DNA of 64,000 nt from a phage: sequence record OZ335964.1, one strand, 5' to 3'. Both the position numbers and the translations under genes were made by a program. A model generated the notes under the pieces. The model was not told the DNA's origin. It saw only the letters and a list, made by a program, of their open reading frames with translations, and ran no database searches. Shown piece by piece: positions 19,837-47,782 of the stretch (within the stretch, counting starts at the first letter, position 1; every line of letters starts with the position of its first letter).

Positions 19837-21072
19837 TTAAGCAGGAGGCGTTTCACGAATGCGTAGCATCTTCTCTAAGATCTCTCGATCCAGTCGGTGT
19901 AATTCGCTTGCGTTATACATAAATCCGTTTCGTGATTCCATACAGATGCAATCACCAAATTTTTCTTCCGCTGCCGCGATAGTCTCGATATCGTGTGCGT
20001 ATCGGCTATCTTCATAGACAGCACGATCCCTCCAGTCTTGCCCTTTCTCGTTGAACTTCACGATCTCATCAAATACCCACCATCCAATGTAGATAAATGA
20101 CGTATTACGCCACGGAATCGGGTGTACATAACGTAACATACTATGAAGAGATTCAACCACTTCTACGGCGCAATGAGAGCTTCCTTTGTCCTCGATCAGT
20201 ACATCGTTTTTATTCAGCGTCTGATAGAGTTCAGCAACACACCAGAAATTAGCGGTGTCATCGGTGGTTGCGGCGTCTTTGTGTAGGTATCCATTAGGCA
20301 TAATAACGAATCCTTCAATGGCTTCTCCTTCCTCACTACCGATCAGTGTAGGTGCGGACTGCCCTTCACGTTGCAAATACCATTTTTGCTTAACTTTAAG
20401 CGGTGGCATAGATGCAGGAACATTACCAACGGTAACTCCCATAACACGATAAGGTAGTGTGAGTTCTTTACCCAATACAACCGTTTTTTCTAGCGGGAGA
20501 TCTTCAACTACAGACAAAGCGATAGACACCAGATCAATTGCTGCGGAGTCCATCGACGCTTCCGATTCGCCCCATACTTTAACCTTGTATTCGCCGTTCT
20601 TGTCATCGGTAAAGTTAGGGATAATAAGCGTATCTGTATTATTGCCTAAGTCTACGCCATTGTGCTCCCATTTGAAATTAAGGGTATAGTTATTTGCGGG
20701 AGATTGCCCGGTGGAGTATGCTACCGTTGCCACTATTCCGGTTTGTTCGTCATGCGGAACGTATTGAGAATGTTTATCAAGTTTGACAACCAATTCCGCT
20801 TCGGTCATCTTGAATACGTTAGATTCTACTACTTCTTGTGTGTCTGTGTCGGTTACTGTAACTTTATAGTTGCCAGCATTTGCAGACGTTGCACCAGTTA
20901 TTTTAATTGTTTTTGTTGTTTCCTGCAACGGCTGATCGTTATGCGACCATGCATATGTTACGTTTTGTGGTACTGGATCGCTGCCAACTGCTTCAATAGT
21001 AGCTGAAACGTTGAAAGTATCACCAGCCAGGAAACAACGACGGTTTGATTTTACTGTAACTGTGAATGCCAT
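19837..21072 (-). CDS. hoc: Hoc-like Ig-domain capsid decoration protein (shorter paralog)
   Basis: Ig-like repeats plus C-terminal YVHPIPWRNTSF...ESRNGF module shared with the upstream paralog; start set at MAFTVT (RBS GGAG) after the upstream terminator. Confidence 0.7.
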   Translation of the reverse strand: MAFTVTVKSNRRCFLAGDTFNVSATIEAVGSDPVPQNVTYAWSHNDQPLQETTKTIKITGATSANAGNYKVTVTDTDTQEVVESNVFKMTEAELVVKLDKHSQYVPHDEQTGIVATVAYSTGQSPANNYTLNFKWEHNGVDLGNNTDTLIIPNFTDDKNGEYKVKVWGESEASMDSAAIDLVSIALSVVEDLPLEKTVVLGKELTLPYRVMGVTVGNVPASMPPLKVKQKWYLQREGQSAPTLIGSEEGEAIEGFVIMPNGYLHKDAATTDDTANFWCVAELYQTLNKNDVLIEDKGSSHCAVEVVESLHSMLRYVHPIPWRNTSFIYIGWWVFDEIVKFNEKGQDWRDRAVYEDSRYAHDIETIAAAEEKFGDCICMESRNGFMYNASELHRLDREILEKMLRIRETPPA

Positions 21073-21087
21073 AATAGCCCACTCCAT

Positions 21088-21113
21088 GAAAAAAGATCGC
21101 CCCGAAGGGCGAC
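21088..21113 (-). terminator. Terminator between the two hoc-like genes
   Basis: Minus strand: GTCGCCC-TTCG-GGGCGA then TTTTTT. Confidence 0.65.
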
Positions 21114-21121
21114 CATATTGA

Positions 21122-23665
21122 TTAAAATAGTTGTGTACCATCAACCAGATAACCATTACGTGATTCGAGTACATGGGTATTGCTATAGTGGTGCAGCGAT
21201 GCCGCAATCGTCTCGATCTCGTCTGGATAACGGGTATGCGCGTAATCTTCCAGCCAGTTTAACCCCTCGGCATTGCAGCGATCAATTTCATCGAGTACCC
21301 AATACCCCTGATACTGGAAAGAAGTTCGACGCCACGGAATCGGGTGTACATATCGTTTAAGTTGCGCGGTAGTGAATACCACTTTAACTTTTTCGGTATG
21401 TGCAACATGACCTGTGTCATCTTTAATCTCTGCGTAGTAAGTCGCCTGGTGATTTTGTTTGCTGATCTGGTCTTTCGGGATCGTCAATACACGGTTGGTA
21501 GCACCTTGTATCTCTGTATCTCGTCCATTTTGGATCTTATGCCACTGCCACGCTACCGCTTTAGTATCATCAACATGTTCCGCATGTGCTTCTAACCGAA
21601 TATCCTGATTCTGGCCTTCTTTTGCCACAACATCGACCGGATGTTTCATGATATTGATGTTAGTATGCGGTGACATAGTGATTTCGGCTGCATTCGTTTC
21701 TAGCGTCCGCTCTGCCGCTTTAATTTCTGCGGTATAACGTCCAACGTCAGACGGTTTTGCGTGTTCAATGACCAACACCTCGGAATTTGCGCCGGGGATC
21801 GGTTTACCGTCCTTTTTCCATTGGTAGGATGGTTTAACCCCGATTGTATTGGTTGCTTGAGCGTGAAGCATAACCCTTTCGTTGTAATTTGCGTGCGTGC
21901 TTTGTGGATGCGTGACAATCTGTAGATCGTTCGGGACAATCGTCGGATCGTCAGTTACCAATACCCGCACGGCCTCGGACATTTTAGACACTCGATGTTC
22001 ACCGAATCCCGCAGATACACGACATGTATACACGCCAGTAGATGATAACTGTGCGTGTTCTTCGCCGTATACATTACGTTGCTCTACCCCCATAGGAAAC
22101 AGGTCTTCTCCGTCTTTAAACCAACGATACCGCACGGGTAGCGCATCATTGGAAGTCGCGGTGATAGTCAGCGCCCATTGTCCACCTGAACGAACACTAA
22201 CGGCTTTTGGTTGCACATCAATATTGATGTTAGCGCGGGAGTTGTCTACTGTCACCTGAACTTCATTTGATTCTTTGGTGATTCGGTGGTTTTGAATCCC
22301 CATAGAAACAATACATTTATAAGTTCCCTCATCTGCTTTAGTAATGGCAGAAAAATGCAGTGCAGTTGACGTTTTACCCGGCAACAATTCGCCGTTTTTA
22401 TACCACTGATAATCGAGTTTATAATGTTCATAGTCGGTTGTTGCTTGACAAATCAGTGATTGTGCTGAACTCACGCGAACATTATTGATTGTCTGTGGTT
22501 GTTGGGTGATCGTAATGGTAGGAGCAGCACCGACAAGCAAACTTGCTTCCTGAGTGTCTACGGTCCGGTTTTCTCCATAAGTGATTATGGCCTTATATTT
22601 CGCCTGATTAAGATCCTGTGTTGCTGGAATGATGTGCAATTCCTTATTAGTTTCCCCTACAATCGGTTTAAACTCTTGATCGCCATCTTTCTTGATATAC
22701 CACTGAATTTTAACAGGTGAATAGTTTGTTGCATAATCAACTTTAAACAAAGCGAGAGCACCAGCACCTACGTTAATTGTTAACGGTTCTTGTGTCACTC
22801 GAAAGAATGCGCGATCATCAACAACTACTTTACAATCTTTAGAATATACGGTAGTATCAGCTTGACGAACTTCCAAACGCCAGATACCAGCGTCTTTTTT
22901 CGTTACGTTAGGGATGATCATAGCAGACCCGTTTTGTTCTGGGACCATTCTGCCATTATGAATCCACACATATTCAATTCGACGGGTAGCATCATCCGAA
23001 GTTACAGCAACTTCTAGATCCAGTCGCCCATCTTCCGGTACATGAACTTCCGGCGCATATTGCTCATTGAGATGAATAACCGGAGCATCTTTATTTTGTT
23101 CAACTACCACCGGACTGATCCAATAGAATGACCGTGCATCATCTTCTACAAAAACTTTGCAAGTATAGTTGCCAAAGTCTTCATAACTAACGCGGTCAAC
23201 ATGCACAGAGATATTATCAGGAGTTTTATCACCTGATAGCTGTACATGGTTGCGATACCAAATATAAGCCGCTCGATGATTTTCTTCAATAAACGGGGTA
23301 GCGAAAATATCCAAAGATTCGCCTAATCGCTTGTAAATGTAAGTTGGTGATTGATCGTGTGGTGCGATAAAAATACGTCGCTCGACCAGAATTGGCTTTA
23401 TATCCACATATTCCATTGGATTTTCTGCCAATTTAACACGCGCGGTGTAAGTACCGAATTGATTTGCATCCATCTCGGCAATATACAGAGATTGATCCAC
23501 ATCCGATACTTGATCCGCTGGTACACTTTGTCCGTTTAGCTTCCATTCTACAATATAGTCTTTAAAATCTGCTGTGCTAACTACAACTTTAAGTAAGAGT
23601 TCACGGCCTACAGAAGCATAAACCGGACCCATAGTTTGATGCAATACATTGATTTTATTAGACAT
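21122..23665 (-). CDS. hoc: Giant Hoc-like protein with multiple Ig-like domains
   Basis: 847 aa; repeated beta-rich Ig-like units (e.g. GTYTARV, GNYTCKV, GTYKCIVS, GVYTCRVS, GRYTAEIK); C-terminal YVHPIPWRRTSFQYQGYW...ESRNGY capsid-binding-like module; hoc position after gene 24. Confidence 0.75.
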   Translation of the reverse strand: MSNKINVLHQTMGPVYASVGRELLLKVVVSTADFKDYIVEWKLNGQSVPADQVSDVDQSLYIAEMDANQFGTYTARVKLAENPMEYVDIKPILVERRIFIAPHDQSPTYIYKRLGESLDIFATPFIEENHRAAYIWYRNHVQLSGDKTPDNISVHVDRVSYEDFGNYTCKVFVEDDARSFYWISPVVVEQNKDAPVIHLNEQYAPEVHVPEDGRLDLEVAVTSDDATRRIEYVWIHNGRMVPEQNGSAMIIPNVTKKDAGIWRLEVRQADTTVYSKDCKVVVDDRAFFRVTQEPLTINVGAGALALFKVDYATNYSPVKIQWYIKKDGDQEFKPIVGETNKELHIIPATQDLNQAKYKAIITYGENRTVDTQEASLLVGAAPTITITQQPQTINNVRVSSAQSLICQATTDYEHYKLDYQWYKNGELLPGKTSTALHFSAITKADEGTYKCIVSMGIQNHRITKESNEVQVTVDNSRANINIDVQPKAVSVRSGGQWALTITATSNDALPVRYRWFKDGEDLFPMGVEQRNVYGEEHAQLSSTGVYTCRVSAGFGEHRVSKMSEAVRVLVTDDPTIVPNDLQIVTHPQSTHANYNERVMLHAQATNTIGVKPSYQWKKDGKPIPGANSEVLVIEHAKPSDVGRYTAEIKAAERTLETNAAEITMSPHTNINIMKHPVDVVAKEGQNQDIRLEAHAEHVDDTKAVAWQWHKIQNGRDTEIQGATNRVLTIPKDQISKQNHQATYYAEIKDDTGHVAHTEKVKVVFTTAQLKRYVHPIPWRRTSFQYQGYWVLDEIDRCNAEGLNWLEDYAHTRYPDEIETIAASLHHYSNTHVLESRNGYLVDGTQLF

Positions 23666-34148: not shown

Positions 34149-34653
34149 AATTTAGCAGATCTTCACACTGTTTACGCAGTTTATGACGATATTCTTTAGA
34201 TTGCAGTAGTTGTACTTTTTCATAATCCCCTATTTCATATGCATTTGAGAGATCATCCTGATATGCTGCCTCTGTACCAATTCGGCAAATGTCGTATTGA
34301 CGGGCTTTTTTCAAATCTAATTGTTCTCTCTCAAATTCTTTTCTTCGTTTTTCTTCTCGCTCTTGATACTTTTTATTTTGATATTCGATGTTGCTCTTAA
34401 TCTCTGCAATTCGTTGCTGTGCTTCTTGTGGCAATCCTACACGCAAAGCGGCTTCATCTTTTTTCTGTAACAGGTCGATAACACAGTATTCTGGTTCTTG
34501 ATAAGTCTGATTACCATGTGGATGGTAGTACCAACGAGCGCAATGTTCTTCGATTGACTGTATAGAAGCCGTAGCCGTTCGATAGTCTTTAATATTAGCA
34601 CAACCAGTTAACATGAATACAGCCGCAAGTCCGATTGGTTTAATCATTTTCAT
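34147..34653 (-). CDS. Predicted lipoprotein
   Basis: Signal peptide with lipobox (AAVFMLTGC); charged helical remainder; translationally coupled to the upstream ART-like gene. Confidence 0.55.
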   Translation of the reverse strand: MKMIKPIGLAAVFMLTGCANIKDYRTATASIQSIEEHCARWYYHPHGNQTYQEPEYCVIDLLQKKDEAALRVGLPQEAQQRIAEIKSNIEYQNKKYQEREEKRRKEFEREQLDLKKARQYDICRIGTEAAYQDDLSNAYEIGDYEKVQLLQSKEYRHKLRKQCEDLLN

Positions 34654-35474
34654 TTAGTCACCTCACCGAAAATTGTAAATTGTCTACGATTCTCATCGCC
34701 GAAAGATTCTACTACGTCGTTTACCTTTATGCAAGTCCCGCGCGGTAAAATTACTTCACATTCGCAAGGATTCCATGCAATTGACCCAACAACAAAACCT
34801 TTATGATCTTTTACGTCAATTACCCATGATACATTACAAGAATGTTGCATCTTTCCGGTCATTGATTCATATCGATTCTCACAATAAAGGCTAGTGCTAT
34901 TTGAAAGCCAGCCTCCAAAGATGATCGGTGTCATGCTGGTCGACACAAAGTTTTTAAAGGTAAATTCCTTATCTTCAATAATACGCTCTATTGTCTGAAT
35001 GTCAAGATGTTGACCGCGATAAAGAGTACCGTTTAACTTTTCGGTTTTATCCATGACACAATCCATCAAATCGACGATCTCTGATATCTCATCGGTCATG
35101 TCTTCTTCCCCTAAGAGAGCACCATTTACCCATTCGTATTGTTCAGACACATAATCACAGATTGCATTATATTCTGCTGGGGTTATGTTGTTATGTTTGT
35201 AATGTTTGAACACATTATCTCCAAAGTCTTCAGAGTGTACTTCATACATCACATTAATGATTTTCTTGACAAATCCATAATCTTGTGTCTCGCGCTCAAG
35301 GAAGCGGATAACATTCACGTAATCATCAAAGTTAATCTGATCGCTGATCATCTCAGTGATCATGTAACCATTAATCCCCTCAATGTCATATGTTTCAATA
35401 TAATTGTCCATACGTTCCATCATTGATTCGCGTGATTCTTCCGAAAGACGAAAATCCTGTAATTTCTTGAACAT
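34650..35474 (-). CDS. Alt-like ADP-ribosyltransferase paralog
   Basis: R-S-E triad context: LYRGQ, FVSTSM, CECEVILPRG, parallel to the motifs in the alt-like ORF. Confidence 0.6.
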   Translation of the reverse strand: MFKKLQDFRLSEESRESMMERMDNYIETYDIEGINGYMITEMISDQINFDDYVNVIRFLERETQDYGFVKKIINVMYEVHSEDFGDNVFKHYKHNNITPAEYNAICDYVSEQYEWVNGALLGEEDMTDEISEIVDLMDCVMDKTEKLNGTLYRGQHLDIQTIERIIEDKEFTFKNFVSTSMTPIIFGGWLSNSTSLYCENRYESMTGKMQHSCNVSWVIDVKDHKGFVVGSIAWNPCECEVILPRGTCIKVNDVVESFGDENRRQFTIFGEVTK

Positions 35475-35552: not shown

Positions 35553-37604
35553 TTACATTTTAAATTTATCTGGCATAGCGTCTACAGATACCAGATCAGC
35601 GATAAGCTGACGTAGAGTTGCCTTATCTGCTTTCTTACGTTCGGTTTTAGCTTCGGTAATAAAGCTGGAGAAAGACAGGTCAGAAGCAGGTTTAACAACA
35701 CCTTCACGGATGAATGCATCACCGTCCGCGATCATCTCGCCAGATTCTTGTAATGCTGCCAGTTCATTTTTGTTCATAATATGTGCCTCAATGTAATAAG
35801 TTTCTTGTGAATCCGTCGATGCCGTAGCACGAGTTACCGTATCAAAGGATAACACAACACCGCGAGGAAGTAAAATCTCGCATTCTTTGTAAGCAAATGC
35901 TTTGTTACCTACTGGCAATACAGGGATGTTTTCCGCGCCAGCAATGGAGAAAGCAACATTAGCGCCACCTTCACCGCGAGATCCAGCCATAGAATCTACA
36001 CCAGCAACGGCACTAGCCACGTTTGCATTCCAGCCACCAAAAATGTTAGGTGCAAGGGAAGTGCTCACATAGTTTTTAAAGTAAAACGCTTTTTGCTTAC
36101 GTGCAGTTTCCCACATTTGAGACCGGAAGTCCATACCACGATACAGAATAGTACCAGGATCAAGTTTAACGCCATAGTTAGAGAAGGCATTATCCAGTGC
36201 ATCGCACATCTTGACCAATTCTTCTGGATCTGCGATGCCTTCAAACTCTTCCAGCTTACGGTCGGTTAGGAAGTTGTTCATATTGATGTATGCTGCATCG
36301 GCATATTCGCTCAACACAAAACCTTCCGCGCCAGGCAGATCAAGATCAATATCTGCCATCATTTCACCCATGTTGCTAGCAATTGCTTCAAACATACCGG
36401 AAGCAACATTACGTAGGGCATCGGTTTTAATCTGGGTGATATGACTACGCAGCATTTCAGCTTTTACATCTGCTGGCATAGACTGGTCTACTCGATCCAT
36501 TGCCAGTGCGGTGATCTTGTTTTCGAATACTTCCTCGCTCATGATTTCTTTTAAGCGTTTGATTGATGCTGCGATAACTTCCGCAGACAACGGATCATAT
36601 TGATCCTGAACTTTTACCAGTTCACTTACTGCGTATTTTGCATCGGCTTCGCTTTCAAAAATAGTACGCATGAAACCATAGCGAGTGATAATATCACTTG
36701 TCCAGTCATTCAGAGAACGGGCGGTTGAACGTTCTAAGGCTTGACGATCAATCAGAGTATTAAACTGTTTCTTAGGTTCGGCTTCGGTGATATCTTCTTC
36801 CGGTTTAAGATTAATTTTTTCTGGATGATTCACATAGTCGCTGTTATAGGTCGCTTGAGTTTTCAGCATTTCTTCTTTAGTCAAACGAGACTTAGCCGCT
36901 ACACGTTGTTCTGCTTCCGCGTTTCGTTCTTCTTCTGATGCAAGGCTAGCCGCATACGCTTCATCTTTAGTCAGAGATTCACCAGTAGCTTTAGATACCC
37001 AGCGATCACCTAAATCACTTTCTACTTTAGTGAACAGGGAATCATCAAGTTTAATCCCTTTAATCTTATCAATCGACATCCCGCGACGCTTGACAACAAC
37101 TAAAGCGATCTTTTTGCTGGTCATTACTTCCTGCTGGAATACTTCAAACTTAGGAGTACGACGCACCAAACGCTCTATAACGCGCTTAACCAGTTCGGTC
37201 TTACCTTTCATGCGGGATACGTTAAAACGGAACATAACAGCGTCTAATTGCGCTTTACGGGCTGTTTCCATAACCACATCAAAAGCACTTGCCATAACTG
37301 CAATCGGGTTATCGCCTAGACCATTTTTAAGCTGTACAATACGACCGCTTTTGTTCATCTCGCACAGTACAACATGTGCGGTCTTGTCACCCATACGAAT
37401 GATTTTAGGTGTTTTGTTGGTGAAGTTACAAAGACGGACAATCACATCTTTATCGCGTGTCTGTACTGCAAAAAGCTGTTTAGGGTTCTGCTTAGGCTTT
37501 AAGCACTGTACCGGAGCAATACTACCAAAGTTTTCTTCCTCTTCCGTCAACAGCCATTTCTCGAAAGATTCAATCATTAGATCGTCGATTTCTAAGTTAA
37601 ACAT
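35553..37604 (-). CDS. alt: Alt ADP-ribosyltransferase (internal head protein)
   Basis: 683 aa, T4 Alt-sized; C-terminal ART motifs ILYRGMD, YVSTSL, ECEILLPRG; position after gene 54. Confidence 0.8.
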   Translation of the reverse strand: MFNLEIDDLMIESFEKWLLTEEEENFGSIAPVQCLKPKQNPKQLFAVQTRDKDVIVRLCNFTNKTPKIIRMGDKTAHVVLCEMNKSGRIVQLKNGLGDNPIAVMASAFDVVMETARKAQLDAVMFRFNVSRMKGKTELVKRVIERLVRRTPKFEVFQQEVMTSKKIALVVVKRRGMSIDKIKGIKLDDSLFTKVESDLGDRWVSKATGESLTKDEAYAASLASEEERNAEAEQRVAAKSRLTKEEMLKTQATYNSDYVNHPEKINLKPEEDITEAEPKKQFNTLIDRQALERSTARSLNDWTSDIITRYGFMRTIFESEADAKYAVSELVKVQDQYDPLSAEVIAASIKRLKEIMSEEVFENKITALAMDRVDQSMPADVKAEMLRSHITQIKTDALRNVASGMFEAIASNMGEMMADIDLDLPGAEGFVLSEYADAAYINMNNFLTDRKLEEFEGIADPEELVKMCDALDNAFSNYGVKLDPGTILYRGMDFRSQMWETARKQKAFYFKNYVSTSLAPNIFGGWNANVASAVAGVDSMAGSRGEGGANVAFSIAGAENIPVLPVGNKAFAYKECEILLPRGVVLSFDTVTRATASTDSQETYYIEAHIMNKNELAALQESGEMIADGDAFIREGVVKPASDLSFSSFITEAKTERKKADKATLRQLIADLVSVDAMPDKFKM

Positions 37605-37958: not shown

Positions 37959-38477
37959 TTAGTTATTTTTTAATTGCTCATCTTGCAATAAAGCAATCAC
38001 ATGCTGGCGATGTTCTTCCGACTGAGGCACACCGAAAAAGTTTGTTTTGTAGAAATACTCTAATCGGTCTTCTCGTGTGCTCTCTTCCATCATGATCGCG
38101 GGTAGTCCGAGATTTCGGAAACGTCGCTTTTCTGCTGGCGTAAAATCGCTGTAATACAGCATAGAATCATCATTACCAGCAATGCTAAACTCATCCTTCA
38201 TGAAAGAGAATATTGCGTTTAAACGCTGTTTACCGTCCACGATTTCGATCTCATAGCGAGAGCCATCATCAATCTTAGCCATTGCGATAGCACCAACCGG
38301 AAAATCATTAATCAGGTTTTCGATAAACATACGTTTGTTTTCTGTGTCCCATACTAAAGGACGCTGATAATCTGGGTTCATGTTGATAAAGCCATCTTCT
38401 AGCCATGCTTCATAGACAGATATGACAAAGTTTTTAGTATTGGTATAGTAACGGCGTTTAGGCGTTAAACGGTTCAT
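37959..38477 (-). CDS. DUF262 / ParB-like domain protein
   Basis: Motifs PDYQRPLVW and IVDGKQRLNAI match the DUF262 (GmrSD N-terminal) signature; start set at MNRLT with RBS AGGAGA. Confidence 0.5.
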   Translation of the reverse strand: MNRLTPKRRYYTNTKNFVISVYEAWLEDGFINMNPDYQRPLVWDTENKRMFIENLINDFPVGAIAMAKIDDGSRYEIEIVDGKQRLNAIFSFMKDEFSIAGNDDSMLYYSDFTPAEKRRFRNLGLPAIMMEESTREDRLEYFYKTNFFGVPQSEEHRQHVIALLQDEQLKNN

Positions 38478-38478
38478 G

Positions 38479-38811
38479 TTATAGTCTCCTGAATGGATCA
38501 TCACGTAAATCAATATCTTTTAAGAACTCATCCCATGAATGGCGGATATTGTTCTTAATTCTCCAGATAAGCGCAGGGATTGAACGCTCTCCCATCTGGA
38601 AGTAAGGATCATATGATCCGTATGCCCAATATGCTACTACAATTCCACAATCAGCGCAATAGTATTCTATTTCACTTGCTGGCGACCAAAGTCCATCAAT
38701 ATGATCGGTGATCTTGCTTTCGATGTTATGGCTATGGCAATCAGGGCAACGGATGCAATGACCTTGTTTATCGTAATTTGACGTTAGCGAATACTTAAAC
38801 AATCTCATCAT
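38479..38811 (-). CDS. Zinc-ribbon protein
   Basis: CIRCPDC...C..C..YYCADC cysteine pairs; translationally coupled between the MTase-like and DUF262-like genes. Confidence 0.45.
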   Translation of the reverse strand: MMRLFKYSLTSNYDKQGHCIRCPDCHSHNIESKITDHIDGLWSPASEIEYYCADCGIVVAYWAYGSYDPYFQMGERSIPALIWRIKNNIRHSWDEFLKDIDLRDDPFRRL

Positions 38812-45114: not shown

Positions 45115-45591
45115 TTATTTTTCTTGATGCTCGCGCTCGTACTTTTCGAAATAAAATTCTACTGGCTGGTCGTGGATTGACAGTAAGCCAAAGCGTTTAG
45201 CCGCTCGCAACCCCATATTGCGCTGAATGTACTTCTGGAAGTTCTCGCGTATACACTTACGCCAGTATTCTAAGCCCATACAGCTTTTATAAAGATTGCA
45301 TTGCACACACGCCGGATTCATGTTATCAAGTATATCATGCTCCGGTTTATGCATTCCTACAACCTTATACTTCCACGATCCATCATCATTACGGGCAATT
45401 CGTCCATTTTCATCATAGACTACTTTTGAGCGTCGTAATACTGGTTTGATGTGGTCTGCGTGCCAGCGATCCCCTAGTTCCTCGCCACAATAGGCACAAT
45501 GTCCACCATATTTCATTTTCAGGATCTGGCGTTGCTCTTTCTTTGACAATTTTTTAGGTTTAGGGGCTTTCGCCCCTTCATTATCACACAT
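45115..45591 (-). CDS. HNH endonuclease family protein
   Basis: CAYCGEELG...HADHIKP...NMNPACVQCN; translationally coupled to the ligase gene. Confidence 0.6.
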   Translation of the reverse strand: MCDNEGAKAPKPKKLSKKEQRQILKMKYGGHCAYCGEELGDRWHADHIKPVLRRSKVVYDENGRIARNDDGSWKYKVVGMHKPEHDILDNMNPACVQCNLYKSCMGLEYWRKCIRENFQKYIQRNMGLRAAKRFGLLSIHDQPVEFYFEKYEREHQEK

Positions 45592-47086
45592 CGAATACCT
45601 CTTTTACTGTATTTGCAGTGGTCTTGTCGTAGCGAATACGTTTGATGATCGGGAGAAATAAAGAGAACTCCGGTTCATCTTCTTTACGTGATTTGCTGCG
45701 GATATACCCGTTGCATGTCATCTCAATGACTTTTCCAATCAGGTTATGACGGTCAGCCCATAACATTTCTCGGTCAAGTTCATTTCGACGATCGAACGGA
45801 ATTACACGTTCGATACCATCATCACCTTTTTCGGTTGTAGTGTCGGTTAATCCCGATCCGGTGTTAGTCATCATTCGTCCACACGCACTACGGACAGTAA
45901 AACCGCCTACCTTATTGGGGTCTTTACTATGCGGATATACATCAACAATTTCCGCGTCGAAGTCAATCACTTCTTTAAATTTAACCTGATCTTTACTACG
46001 GCGATCTTCAAATACACCATGCAGATTTTTAAGGATAATACCTTCTAAGCCCATGTTTACATAGCGATGATATACTTCGCGAGCTTCATCGATATTGTTA
46101 ACTACAGTATTTTCGATTATCTGAACACGAGGATCGTTAAGTTCTTCAACAATCTGTTTTAGTTCTTCGAATCGATCTTTATATTGCTTCGTTGCTTTCT
46201 CGTTTCCGTAATACACATCACGGTCGATAACATCCCAGACAGTGTAAACAATACATTGGGCTTCTTCTTTTGGAATAGTTCCTTTCAGTGATTTGTTGAG
46301 GATACCATTTCCGGTCTGACGATCTGCAACAACGGATTCTTTTACTGCTTCCGCTACTGGCGTTAATGGTATTTCCTCTTCTTCAAATATCCATGACAGA
46401 GTACCATCATAAACGCTCTCAACGAAGTTCTGCGCTGGTGTTTGCGAAAGGGTAGGCATATATACCAATTCGCCATCTAGAACAATTCCACGGCCTCGTA
46501 GACGCTCTAAAACAGAAAACAAATCATCCAGCCCCTGGTAGGTATTACCTGAACGGGTATATATTGCTAATGTTTCCCCGTCAATATCAGCCATACCACG
46601 AGCGCCATCACTTTTAAGTTGTGCATATGCCGGATATTTGATATTAGCAATAGCCTTATCAGAATATGACGATGCAAGGTGGCATGGTTGCTGGGGGATC
46701 AGTTTCTTCCATACCTTGTTTGAAGTGGTAGCGGAACAACCGCATTCCAGATCACGATTCAGGACCATCATTGCAACTTTAGCATCATCTTCTGACAAGC
46801 AAGTCAGAGTATCGGTAACTAGCTGTAATGCTGCATTACCAGTTACTTGACGCGTGGCAAGTTTATTTTTAAAGACCTGCAATGCACCGGATAAAGACAA
46901 TACAGACGAATAGCGCGATGGTTTATCGTATTTCTTTACGCCAAACGTAACCTGTTTGCAATATGCCAGATAAAAGCATTCTTTCAGCGTTTCATTGCTT
47001 GCAGATTCTTTCAGGATCTTTTCTTTCAGCGATGTTTTGTCGGTCGCTGCAAGCTGGTTAATGATATTAAGAATTGACATTTTCAC
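45584..47086 (-). CDS. 30: ATP-dependent DNA ligase (gp30)
   Basis: Aligns with T4 DNA ligase: TGNAA, MMVLNRDLECG, YAQLKSDGARG (adenylation lysine motif), EGIILKN, GGF. Confidence 0.9.
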   Translation of the reverse strand: MKMSILNIINQLAATDKTSLKEKILKESASNETLKECFYLAYCKQVTFGVKKYDKPSRYSSVLSLSGALQVFKNKLATRQVTGNAALQLVTDTLTCLSEDDAKVAMMVLNRDLECGCSATTSNKVWKKLIPQQPCHLASSYSDKAIANIKYPAYAQLKSDGARGMADIDGETLAIYTRSGNTYQGLDDLFSVLERLRGRGIVLDGELVYMPTLSQTPAQNFVESVYDGTLSWIFEEEEIPLTPVAEAVKESVVADRQTGNGILNKSLKGTIPKEEAQCIVYTVWDVIDRDVYYGNEKATKQYKDRFEELKQIVEELNDPRVQIIENTVVNNIDEAREVYHRYVNMGLEGIILKNLHGVFEDRRSKDQVKFKEVIDFDAEIVDVYPHSKDPNKVGGFTVRSACGRMMTNTGSGLTDTTTEKGDDGIERVIPFDRRNELDREMLWADRHNLIGKVIEMTCNGYIRSKSRKEDEPEFSLFLPIIKRIRYDKTTANTVKEVFDV

Positions 47087-47546
47087 CTCGTTTTGTTAAA
47101 CGTTCACGAATATCATTGAGGATACTACAAAATTCCGATTCGGTCAATATGGTCTTTAACGGATCAGTTCCACCTATGCTATGACGCAATTTCTTATTTC
47201 CGGTAGCGAGTAATGCTTTACAAAATTCTGGGTTATTCCGTGCCATCGTAACAAATGCCAGATGCACCAGTCTGTAATAATGCTCACTCATTCTATGAAT
47301 CGGGCGACCCTGAAAATATAGCATGTGATTCTCTATCTTTTCAGCCCTTCCGGTTCTTTTTGCTTTGCCACCGTGCATCAAAAAGATTTCTCTTTGTCTC
47401 TGAGGGTTCTTAAATCTTAGCCCCTGTAAAAATCCTTCTGTGCTGTTAATATCGCAACCAAATAGACGGAATGGTCTTTTATTGAAATTACTCAATTCAC
47501 CCGATGGATAAGGTCCACCCGCATAGATATCAATTTCAGAAGTCAT
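47067..47546 (-). CDS. NADAR / YbiA-like (DUF1768) domain protein
   Basis: Aligns with E. coli YbiA: SGELSNFN / GDFSNFA, STEGF / SEHYF, QREIFLMHGGKAKRTGR / REEIRRV..AARMGR, ALLATGNKKLRHS / LLATAPAKLVEH. Confidence 0.65.
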   Translation of the reverse strand: MTSEIDIYAGGPYPSGELSNFNKRPFRLFGCDINSTEGFLQGLRFKNPQRQREIFLMHGGKAKRTGRAEKIENHMLYFQGRPIHRMSEHYYRLVHLAFVTMARNNPEFCKALLATGNKKLRHSIGGTDPLKTILTESEFCSILNDIRERLTKRGENVNS

Positions 47547-47700
47547 TGAAACTAATCTCGCTAATCATAGAGAACGGATCATAATCGTCATGAGGAATAT
47601 CGATAGTAATCGAATGAGGATTTACCCATACACCAAACTGGTCTTCTTCGGTGAATACTTCGGTATGGATTTCGTGGATGTTTACATTCATAGTTTTCAT
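47536..47700 (-). CDS. Small hypothetical protein (54 aa), below track cutoff
   Basis: ATG at 47700; stop overlaps the start of the NADAR-like gene. Confidence 0.35.
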   Translation of the reverse strand: MKTMNVNIHEIHTEVFTEEDQFGVWVNPHSITIDIPHDDYDPFSMISEISFNDF

Positions 47701-47782
47701 AATAAAATTCCTTAATAATCAATAACTTACAAAATCATATAGCCAAAATATAGGCGGGATTATTTCCCGCCGTTTAAAATCA

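Follow-up and report, generated by a model that had tools for sequence, protein, structure and literature searches.

The stretch analyzed here, a 64,000-nucleotide (nt) window of sequence record OZ335964.1, comes from an RB49-like phage of the genus Krischvirus, family Straboviridae. At 47067..47546 on the minus strand (stop codon included), it carries adfN (gene 30.3), which starts with ATG and encodes a 159-amino-acid (aa) NADAR protein of the phage type, a predicted ADP-ribosylglycohydrolase. Directly downstream lies gene 30, encoding a 498-aa ATP-dependent DNA ligase (45584..47080, minus strand; PF01068, 79.1 bits), recognized from its sequence and from the annotation of Shigella phage JK32. 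The 3' end of adfN and the start of the ligase gene share 14 nt, and GAGGTG precedes the ligase ATG at 47080, both lying within the codons of the AdfN C-terminal tail. The 4-kb segment around adfN is 98.8% identical to JK32 and 97-98% identical to ~60 further Krischvirus genomes. The order rnlA, pseT, cd, 31, small open reading frame (ORF), 30.3, 30 is common to the window, JK32, and L005, a metagenomic relative at 69% identity; T4 shares this order, with 30.9-30.4 and 30.2-30.1 interposed. Synteny is thus established, and the gene occupies the T4-type position in the early cluster between genes 31 and 30.

In a Pfam comparison, the protein matched PF08010 (Phage_30_3, "Bacteriophage protein GP30.3") end to end, covering profile positions 2-138 of 138 with 131.7 bits against a cutoff of 36 (E=2.2e-38). 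It also matched PHROG 652 (E=4.4e-45) and T4 gp30.3, with 39% identity across 151 residues (E=9e-31), and in the RB49 GenBank entry AJ550428.1, a protein 99.4% identical to it carries the label "30.3: gp30.3." The Pfam NADAR profile, PF08719, scored 15.5 bits, under its 35.1 threshold, an outcome that the original prediction of a NADAR/YbiA-like protein beside DNA ligase, made from the sequence alone, had named as refuting it. We consider that check unsound, because T4 gp30.3, run as a control, likewise gave no PF08719 match at E<=0.01 while scoring 237.5 bits with PF08010. Escherichia coli YbiA gave the mirror image, with 133.1 bits for PF08719 and 17.4 bits for PF08010. A 12-sequence family profile aligned residues 5-151 to YbiA 17-156 (hhalign probability 90.6%, E=1.3e-6), YbiA being its sole PDB sequence match, and pairwise BLASTP (E=0.009) aligned the motifs listed in that prediction. 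A fold search assigned the protein the NADAR (YbiA-like) fold, in which small beta-sheets lie on the sides of an alpha-helical core, and the protein has no further domain. The fold search, the profile comparison, and orthology to T4 gp30.3 place the protein in the phage NADAR subfamily, and we identify the ORF as the ortholog, in Krischvirus, of T4 gene 30.3 (adfN, "anti-DarT factor NADAR"). The original observation at this locus is confirmed.

To count residue conservation, we aligned 170 domain instances taken from the results of an exhaustive profile search, which had recovered 1,666 cluster representatives at E<=0.001. Positions at which the window protein agrees with the consensus include S19, N20, E37, Q41, R85, H122, T135, and E138. 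The S19-N20-F21 motif (47484..47492, minus strand), at the N-terminal edge of the active site, aligns to the SNF of YbiA; its first two columns hold Ser in 161/170 and Asn in 162/170 instances. E37 (codon GAA, 47436..47438, minus strand) is the catalytic glutamate, equivalent to T4 AdfN E36, with which it aligns, PnNADAR E43, and E. coli C7 NADAR E88; it is invariant in two family alignments (A1 and A2), and its column is Glu in 162/170 instances. H122 (codon CAT, 47181..47183, minus strand) is the last-strand histidine that is the hallmark of phage (gp30.3) NADARs, with His in 158/170 instances; it aligns to the Glu in LVEH of YbiA, and the corresponding residue in DarG1 is Asp. The structure was predicted from an alignment in which the T4 and T2 rows were left out, and the model placed H122 just past a predicted strand (residues 119-121). 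The C-terminal alpha-helix (residues 136-152; 47091..47141, minus strand), which the inactive allele of RB69 has lost, aligns to the T4 C terminus (LTEAEFIDVLNLLRDSL) and is intact here, predicted at high pLDDT (predicted local distance difference test). It is followed by a low-confidence tail, KRGENVNS-type (residues 153-159; 47067..47090, minus strand; pLDDT 66 for the last block), which overlaps both the start codon and the ribosome-binding site of the ligase gene and is not present in T4 gp30.3.

The window adfN is maintained by purifying selection. The ratio of nonsynonymous to synonymous substitution rates (dN/dS, Nei-Gojobori) was 0.02-0.13 against five other Krischvirus genomes and ~0.10 against the 69%-identical metagenomic relative, for which dS is saturated; among the five genomes, it reached up to 0.54, each pair resting on only 2-7 substitutions. 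The protein is 97.5-99.4% identical to RB49 gp30.3 and its Krischvirus orthologs (155-158/159 residues, five genomes), which occupy the same position and have the same Arg44, and E37, R44, and H122 are fixed in 7/7 sequences (window, five Krischvirus genomes, and the 69%-identity relative), establishing conservation of the catalytic set. The window copy has Ala68 (codon 47343-47345) in place of Thr68, which is found in all five, and otherwise does not differ meaningfully from these orthologs; residue 68 sits in the loop after helix 59-67.

The chemistry of the family has been described elsewhere. Schuller et al. (2023; PMC11543638) reported that NADARs hydrolyze guanine-linked ADP-ribose (G-ADPr) and act as the DarTG1 antitoxin, using a Glu, a diphosphate-coordinating Lys seven residues on, and a last-strand acidic residue "replaced ... 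with histidine in phage NADARs"; this His defines the phage subfamily (PMC11125620, PMC11543638), whose members were named "gp30.3 proteins" in a 2024 Toxins paper (PMC11125620). There, T4 gp30.3 stripped G-ADPr but not thymine-linked ADP-ribose (T-ADPr) in vitro and had no antitoxin function in cells. T4 NADAR also leaves cytosine-linked ADP-ribose (C-ADPr) in place, and all NADAR families tested, T4's included, take G-ADPr off RNA as well. Johannesman et al. (Nat Commun 2025, PMC11825919; preprint PMC11257639) identified gene 30.3, which they renamed adfN, as the locus that makes T-even phages resistant to DarTG1. Deletion of adfN made T4 and T2 ~10^4-fold DarTG1 sensitive, and adfN in trans rescued RB69, whose allele is without the C-terminal helix. 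C-terminal truncation lowered AdfN activity, E36A and K43A impaired rescue by T4 AdfN, and the purified enzyme de-ADP-ribosylated DarT1-modified DNA; AdfN gave no counter to DarTG2, and T4 AdfN was fully effective only during T-even infection, possibly via another T-even protein (PMC11825919). An independent transposon screen found adfN to be essential only on DarTG1 hosts and T4 Tk.4 to be a macrodomain anti-DarTG2 factor, AdfM. The anti-DarTG1 function of T4 gp30.3 (AdfN) has thus been demonstrated both genetically and biochemically (PMC11825919, PMC11125620, bioRxiv 10.1101/2025.11.20.689424).

By analogy with these T4 experiments, we infer the substrate, chemistry, and anti-DarTG1 role of the window protein, and its most likely role, which we regard as probable, is to reverse enzymatically the guanine ADP-ribosylation that DarT1 places on phage DNA. 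AdfN would be expressed early in infection, from the cluster running from gene 31 to gene 30, as a small NADAR enzyme consisting of the core alone. Host DarTG1 would sense infection, and its toxin DarT1 would ADP-ribosylate guanine in phage DNA, blocking replication. AdfN would then bind the ADP-ribose and hydrolyze the N-glycosidic ribose-guanine bond, restoring unmodified DNA and allowing replication to proceed; E37 and H122 would flank the distal ribose, while R44, the basic residue at Glu+7, would hold the diphosphate. Its action would be catalytic on the DNA lesion rather than toxin binding, and no effect would be expected on thymine ADP-ribosylation by DarTG2. The original prediction had considered a role against DarTG-type defense plausible; this stands for DarTG1 (guanine), as published for the T4 ortholog, but does not extend to DarTG2 (thymine).

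Like T4 AdfN, to which it is 39% identical over its full length, the window protein belongs to PF08010, folds as a core-only NADAR, retains the catalytic Glu and the last-strand His as well as the C-terminal helix, and is encoded in the early gene 31-30 neighborhood. It differs in having R44 where T4 has K43 and in its C-terminal tail, which is 7 residues longer, disordered, and carries the ligase ribosome-binding site and start. Its gene abuts the ligase gene directly, whereas the T4 order is 30.4, 30.3, 30.2, 30.1, 30; 30.1 and 30.2 are absent, and the small upstream ORF is unrelated to 30.4. Krischvirus DNA, moreover, is unmodified or differently modified: RB49 DNA is unmodified, and one Krischvirus (SAP) has been reported to have modified DNA. 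A 2024 preprint proposed that T4 AdfN prefers hydroxymethylated DNA, and a phage with unmodified cytosine was considered as an incompatible context; we dropped this notion, since it is overturned by the published finding that T4-GT7, which has unmodified DNA, still depends on AdfN (PMC11825919). DNA modification is therefore not expected to matter. We note that RB49 retains a homolog of gp56 (dCTPase/dUTPase; 51% identity, OZ035808.1 87273-87788) despite its unmodified cytosine.

Other NADARs are more distant. The DarG1/BC4488-family antitoxins (E. coli C7 NADAR; Geobacter lovleyi NADAR, PDB 8bat) have an N-terminal beta1-beta2-alpha1 DNA-binding extension, with a positively charged single-stranded DNA groove, that the window protein does not, and their last strand has Asp rather than His122. 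Their genetic setting differs too, in that the window gene is flanked by DNA ligase and a 54-aa ORF rather than by a DarT1 toxin gene, and, unlike these antitoxins, the T4 ortholog is no antitoxin in uninfected cells. E. coli YbiA (PDB 2b3w) is 22-23% identical; it differs in its profile, PF08719 being under threshold for the window protein, in the subfamily-defining Glu, replaced here by His, and in an extra beta-hairpin at residues 75-84 of the window protein. AdfN-Bas32 and AdfN-Bas60 (T5-like, Vequintavirinae) resemble it as phage-encoded orphan NADARs that counter DarTG1 by G-ADPr removal. By published description, however, they are other, independently acquired NADAR branches that are independent of phage context, while the window protein belongs to the gp30.3 branch of the T4 superfamily. 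Domains of the gp30.3 type (PF08010) were also found in metagenomic proteins (P0072, P0111, P0086, P0114, and P0014), as tandem copies and fused variously with BspA-type leucine-rich repeats, prolipoprotein diacylglyceryl transferase (LGT), and an FtsW/RodA-like membrane domain, so that the "phage" NADAR subfamily extends beyond phages and beyond stand-alone proteins.

Several points weigh against the DarTG1 assignment. Identity to T4 AdfN is only 39%, and a search of the literature library for DarTG together with Krischvirus returned no paper. A tblastn search of the window and the complete RB49 genome yielded no homolog of gp30.1, gp30.2, gp30.4, or AdfA (gp61.2) at E<=0.01, although the controls primase, tk, dam, and gp56 were found, as was Tk.4. 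With these four undetected in RB49-type genomes, any T-even partner of AdfN may differ or be absent; if the AdfN of this lineage needs a partner, it is none of the four. The essential K43 of T4, moreover, is replaced by Arg44 (codon AGA, 47415..47417, minus strand), at the Glu+7 position of the essential diphosphate-coordinating Lys of the family (T4 K43, PnNADAR K50, C7 K95), and the corresponding change in the DarG1-type C7 NADAR, K95R, failed to protect cells from DarT1. The doubt that remains about the role stems from the Krischvirus context and this Lys-to-Arg variant.

Arg44 is fixed in the six Krischvirus-lineage genes compared, and it could mean lower efficiency. The Glu+7 column holds Lys in 159/167 aligned residues and Arg in 6/167; besides the window protein, Arg is found in its own cluster, in the 69%-identity relative, and in three unrelated multidomain proteins. 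That so few family members have Arg here, together with the loss of in vivo protection in C7 NADAR K95R, would fit an AdfN that is a poor anti-DarT1 factor in vivo and is kept for a related substrate, such as another DarT1 variant, RNA G-ADPr, or another base-linked adduct. Strong purifying selection shows the Arg form to be useful, and the tested NADAR families, T4's included, also remove G-ADPr from RNA. Against this explanation, K95R kept guanine-ADPr hydrolysis in vitro while losing rescue from DarT1 in cells (PMC11543638), the Lys-to-Arg change is conservative and has become fixed throughout a successful phage genus as well as in the 69%-identical relative, and the remaining active-site residues are all canonical. 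The K95R result is a caveat, not evidence of inactivity, because its readout was antitoxin function in uninfected cells, a setting in which wild-type T4 AdfN fails too. We hold attenuation or retargeting, the foremost alternative, to be unlikely and Arg44 to be a functional caveat, not evidence against homology; the chance is similarly small that this residue marks a functionally shifted AdfN, with another substrate preference, another DarT-variant specificity, or independence from a T-even cofactor.

The remaining explanations move the substrate away from DNA altogether. On comparative-genomic grounds, and before the DarTG1 work, Iyer et al. (2022) argued that phage NADARs degrade soluble ADP-ribose derivatives of low molecular weight, either immune signals or by-products of RNA repair, and adfN does lie among RNA-repair genes (rnlA and pseT) in the window; removal of G-ADPr from DNA, however, explains both the phenotype and the biochemistry of the T4 ortholog, and the papers examined show no soluble substrate for any gp30.3-type protein, which leaves this idea very unlikely. 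The window also encodes two ADP-ribosyltransferases (ARTs), a 683-aa ortholog of the protein-modifying enzyme Alt (alt, 35553..37604, minus strand; PF03496, 37.3 bits; E=4e-62 against T4 Alt, full length) and a 274-aa paralog of the Alt catalytic domain (34650..35474, minus strand; PF03496, 58.2 bits; E=2e-23 against T4 Alt residues 413-593). AdfN could then serve as their eraser, reversing ADP-ribosylation or RNAylation of host proteins for temporal control, and phage NADARs and ARTs are coexpressed as early genes in T4-like phages (Iyer et al. 2022). Yet Alt enzymes modify proteins, whereas the tested NADARs act on base-linked ADP-ribose through N-glycosidic linkages, with no activity on protein-linked ADP-ribose reported in the papers examined. 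These Alt-type genes, the only ART-domain genes found in the window, lie ~10 kb from adfN and do not form an operon pair with it, and T4 needs adfN only when DarTG1 is present. The original prediction had pictured the phage as carrying both writers and an eraser of ADP-ribosylation; the two Alt-like writers are indeed there, but only as a co-occurrence, nothing in this analysis or in the papers examined linking AdfN to the phage's own ARTs, and we judge such an eraser highly improbable. Least credible of all is an N-glycosidase activity of the YbiA type, directed at intermediates of the riboflavin pathway: the YbiA fold, the active-site Glu, and the basic residue are held in common, but PF08719 falls under threshold, the last-strand Glu of the YbiA subfamily is His, and the context contains no riboflavin genes.

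Upstream of adfN, a 54-aa ORF (RB49 "31.-1"; 47536..47700, minus strand) ends in a stop that overlaps the adfN ATG (ATGACTTCTGA), and the two are probably translationally coupled. It is kept at the same position in the metagenomic relative, and a Pfam search with it gave no match. We considered it as a gp30.4 homolog and rejected this, given the lack both of similarity to T4 gp30.4, the protein encoded at the corresponding place in T4, and of a Pfam match. Between gene 31 and this ORF is a terminator-like GC hairpin followed by a T run (47753..47771, minus strand), a candidate by consensus match only; in a search for promoters and terminators around adfN, counts were not above those of shuffled controls. 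On the other side of the locus, an HNH endonuclease ORF (PF01844; 45115-45591, minus strand) overlaps the 3' end of the ligase gene. In the region downstream of the ligase, several related genomes align in two pieces or annotate additional ORFs, which suggests mobile-element variability.

Other parts of the window hold features of separate interest. In the early region, a 184-aa ORF (37959-38513, minus strand) matches GmrSD_N (DUF262, PF03235) with 72.6 bits; GmrSD usually serves hosts as a type IV restriction enzyme that targets modified DNA, and its N-terminal domain alone, borne by a phage, is curious. Compared with RB49, the window is a mosaic, with 96-98% nucleotide identity in the early-gene half (34500-64000) and a gapped 75-88% in the structural/tail-fiber half (1-34000). 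Two large ORFs at 19837-23665 on the minus strand (847 aa and 456 aa) are rich in immunoglobulin-like domains (Ig_3, 140.6 bits; PKD-like) and, judged by these domains, may encode virion-decoration or adhesin-type proteins.

The hypothesis first put forward for this protein is correct and has already been published for the T4 ortholog, so the finding is not new; as family, fold, chemistry, and role were published in 2023-2025, the present analysis adds little scientifically. If Arg44 did mark a shifted AdfN, comparison with T4 AdfN could reveal what makes phage NADARs context specific. RB49-type relatives also carry, elsewhere in the genome, a Tk.4/AdfM-like macrodomain; the RB49 homolog (OZ035808.1 127049-127498, outside the window) is 44% identical to Tk.4, the T4 anti-DarTG2 factor (E=1e-38). 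The window documents a known counterdefense against the DarTG1 toxin-antitoxin system in an RB49-like phage, as a gene copy that is intact and under selection, and the presence of adfN helps host-range prediction for Krischvirus phages in therapy cocktails.
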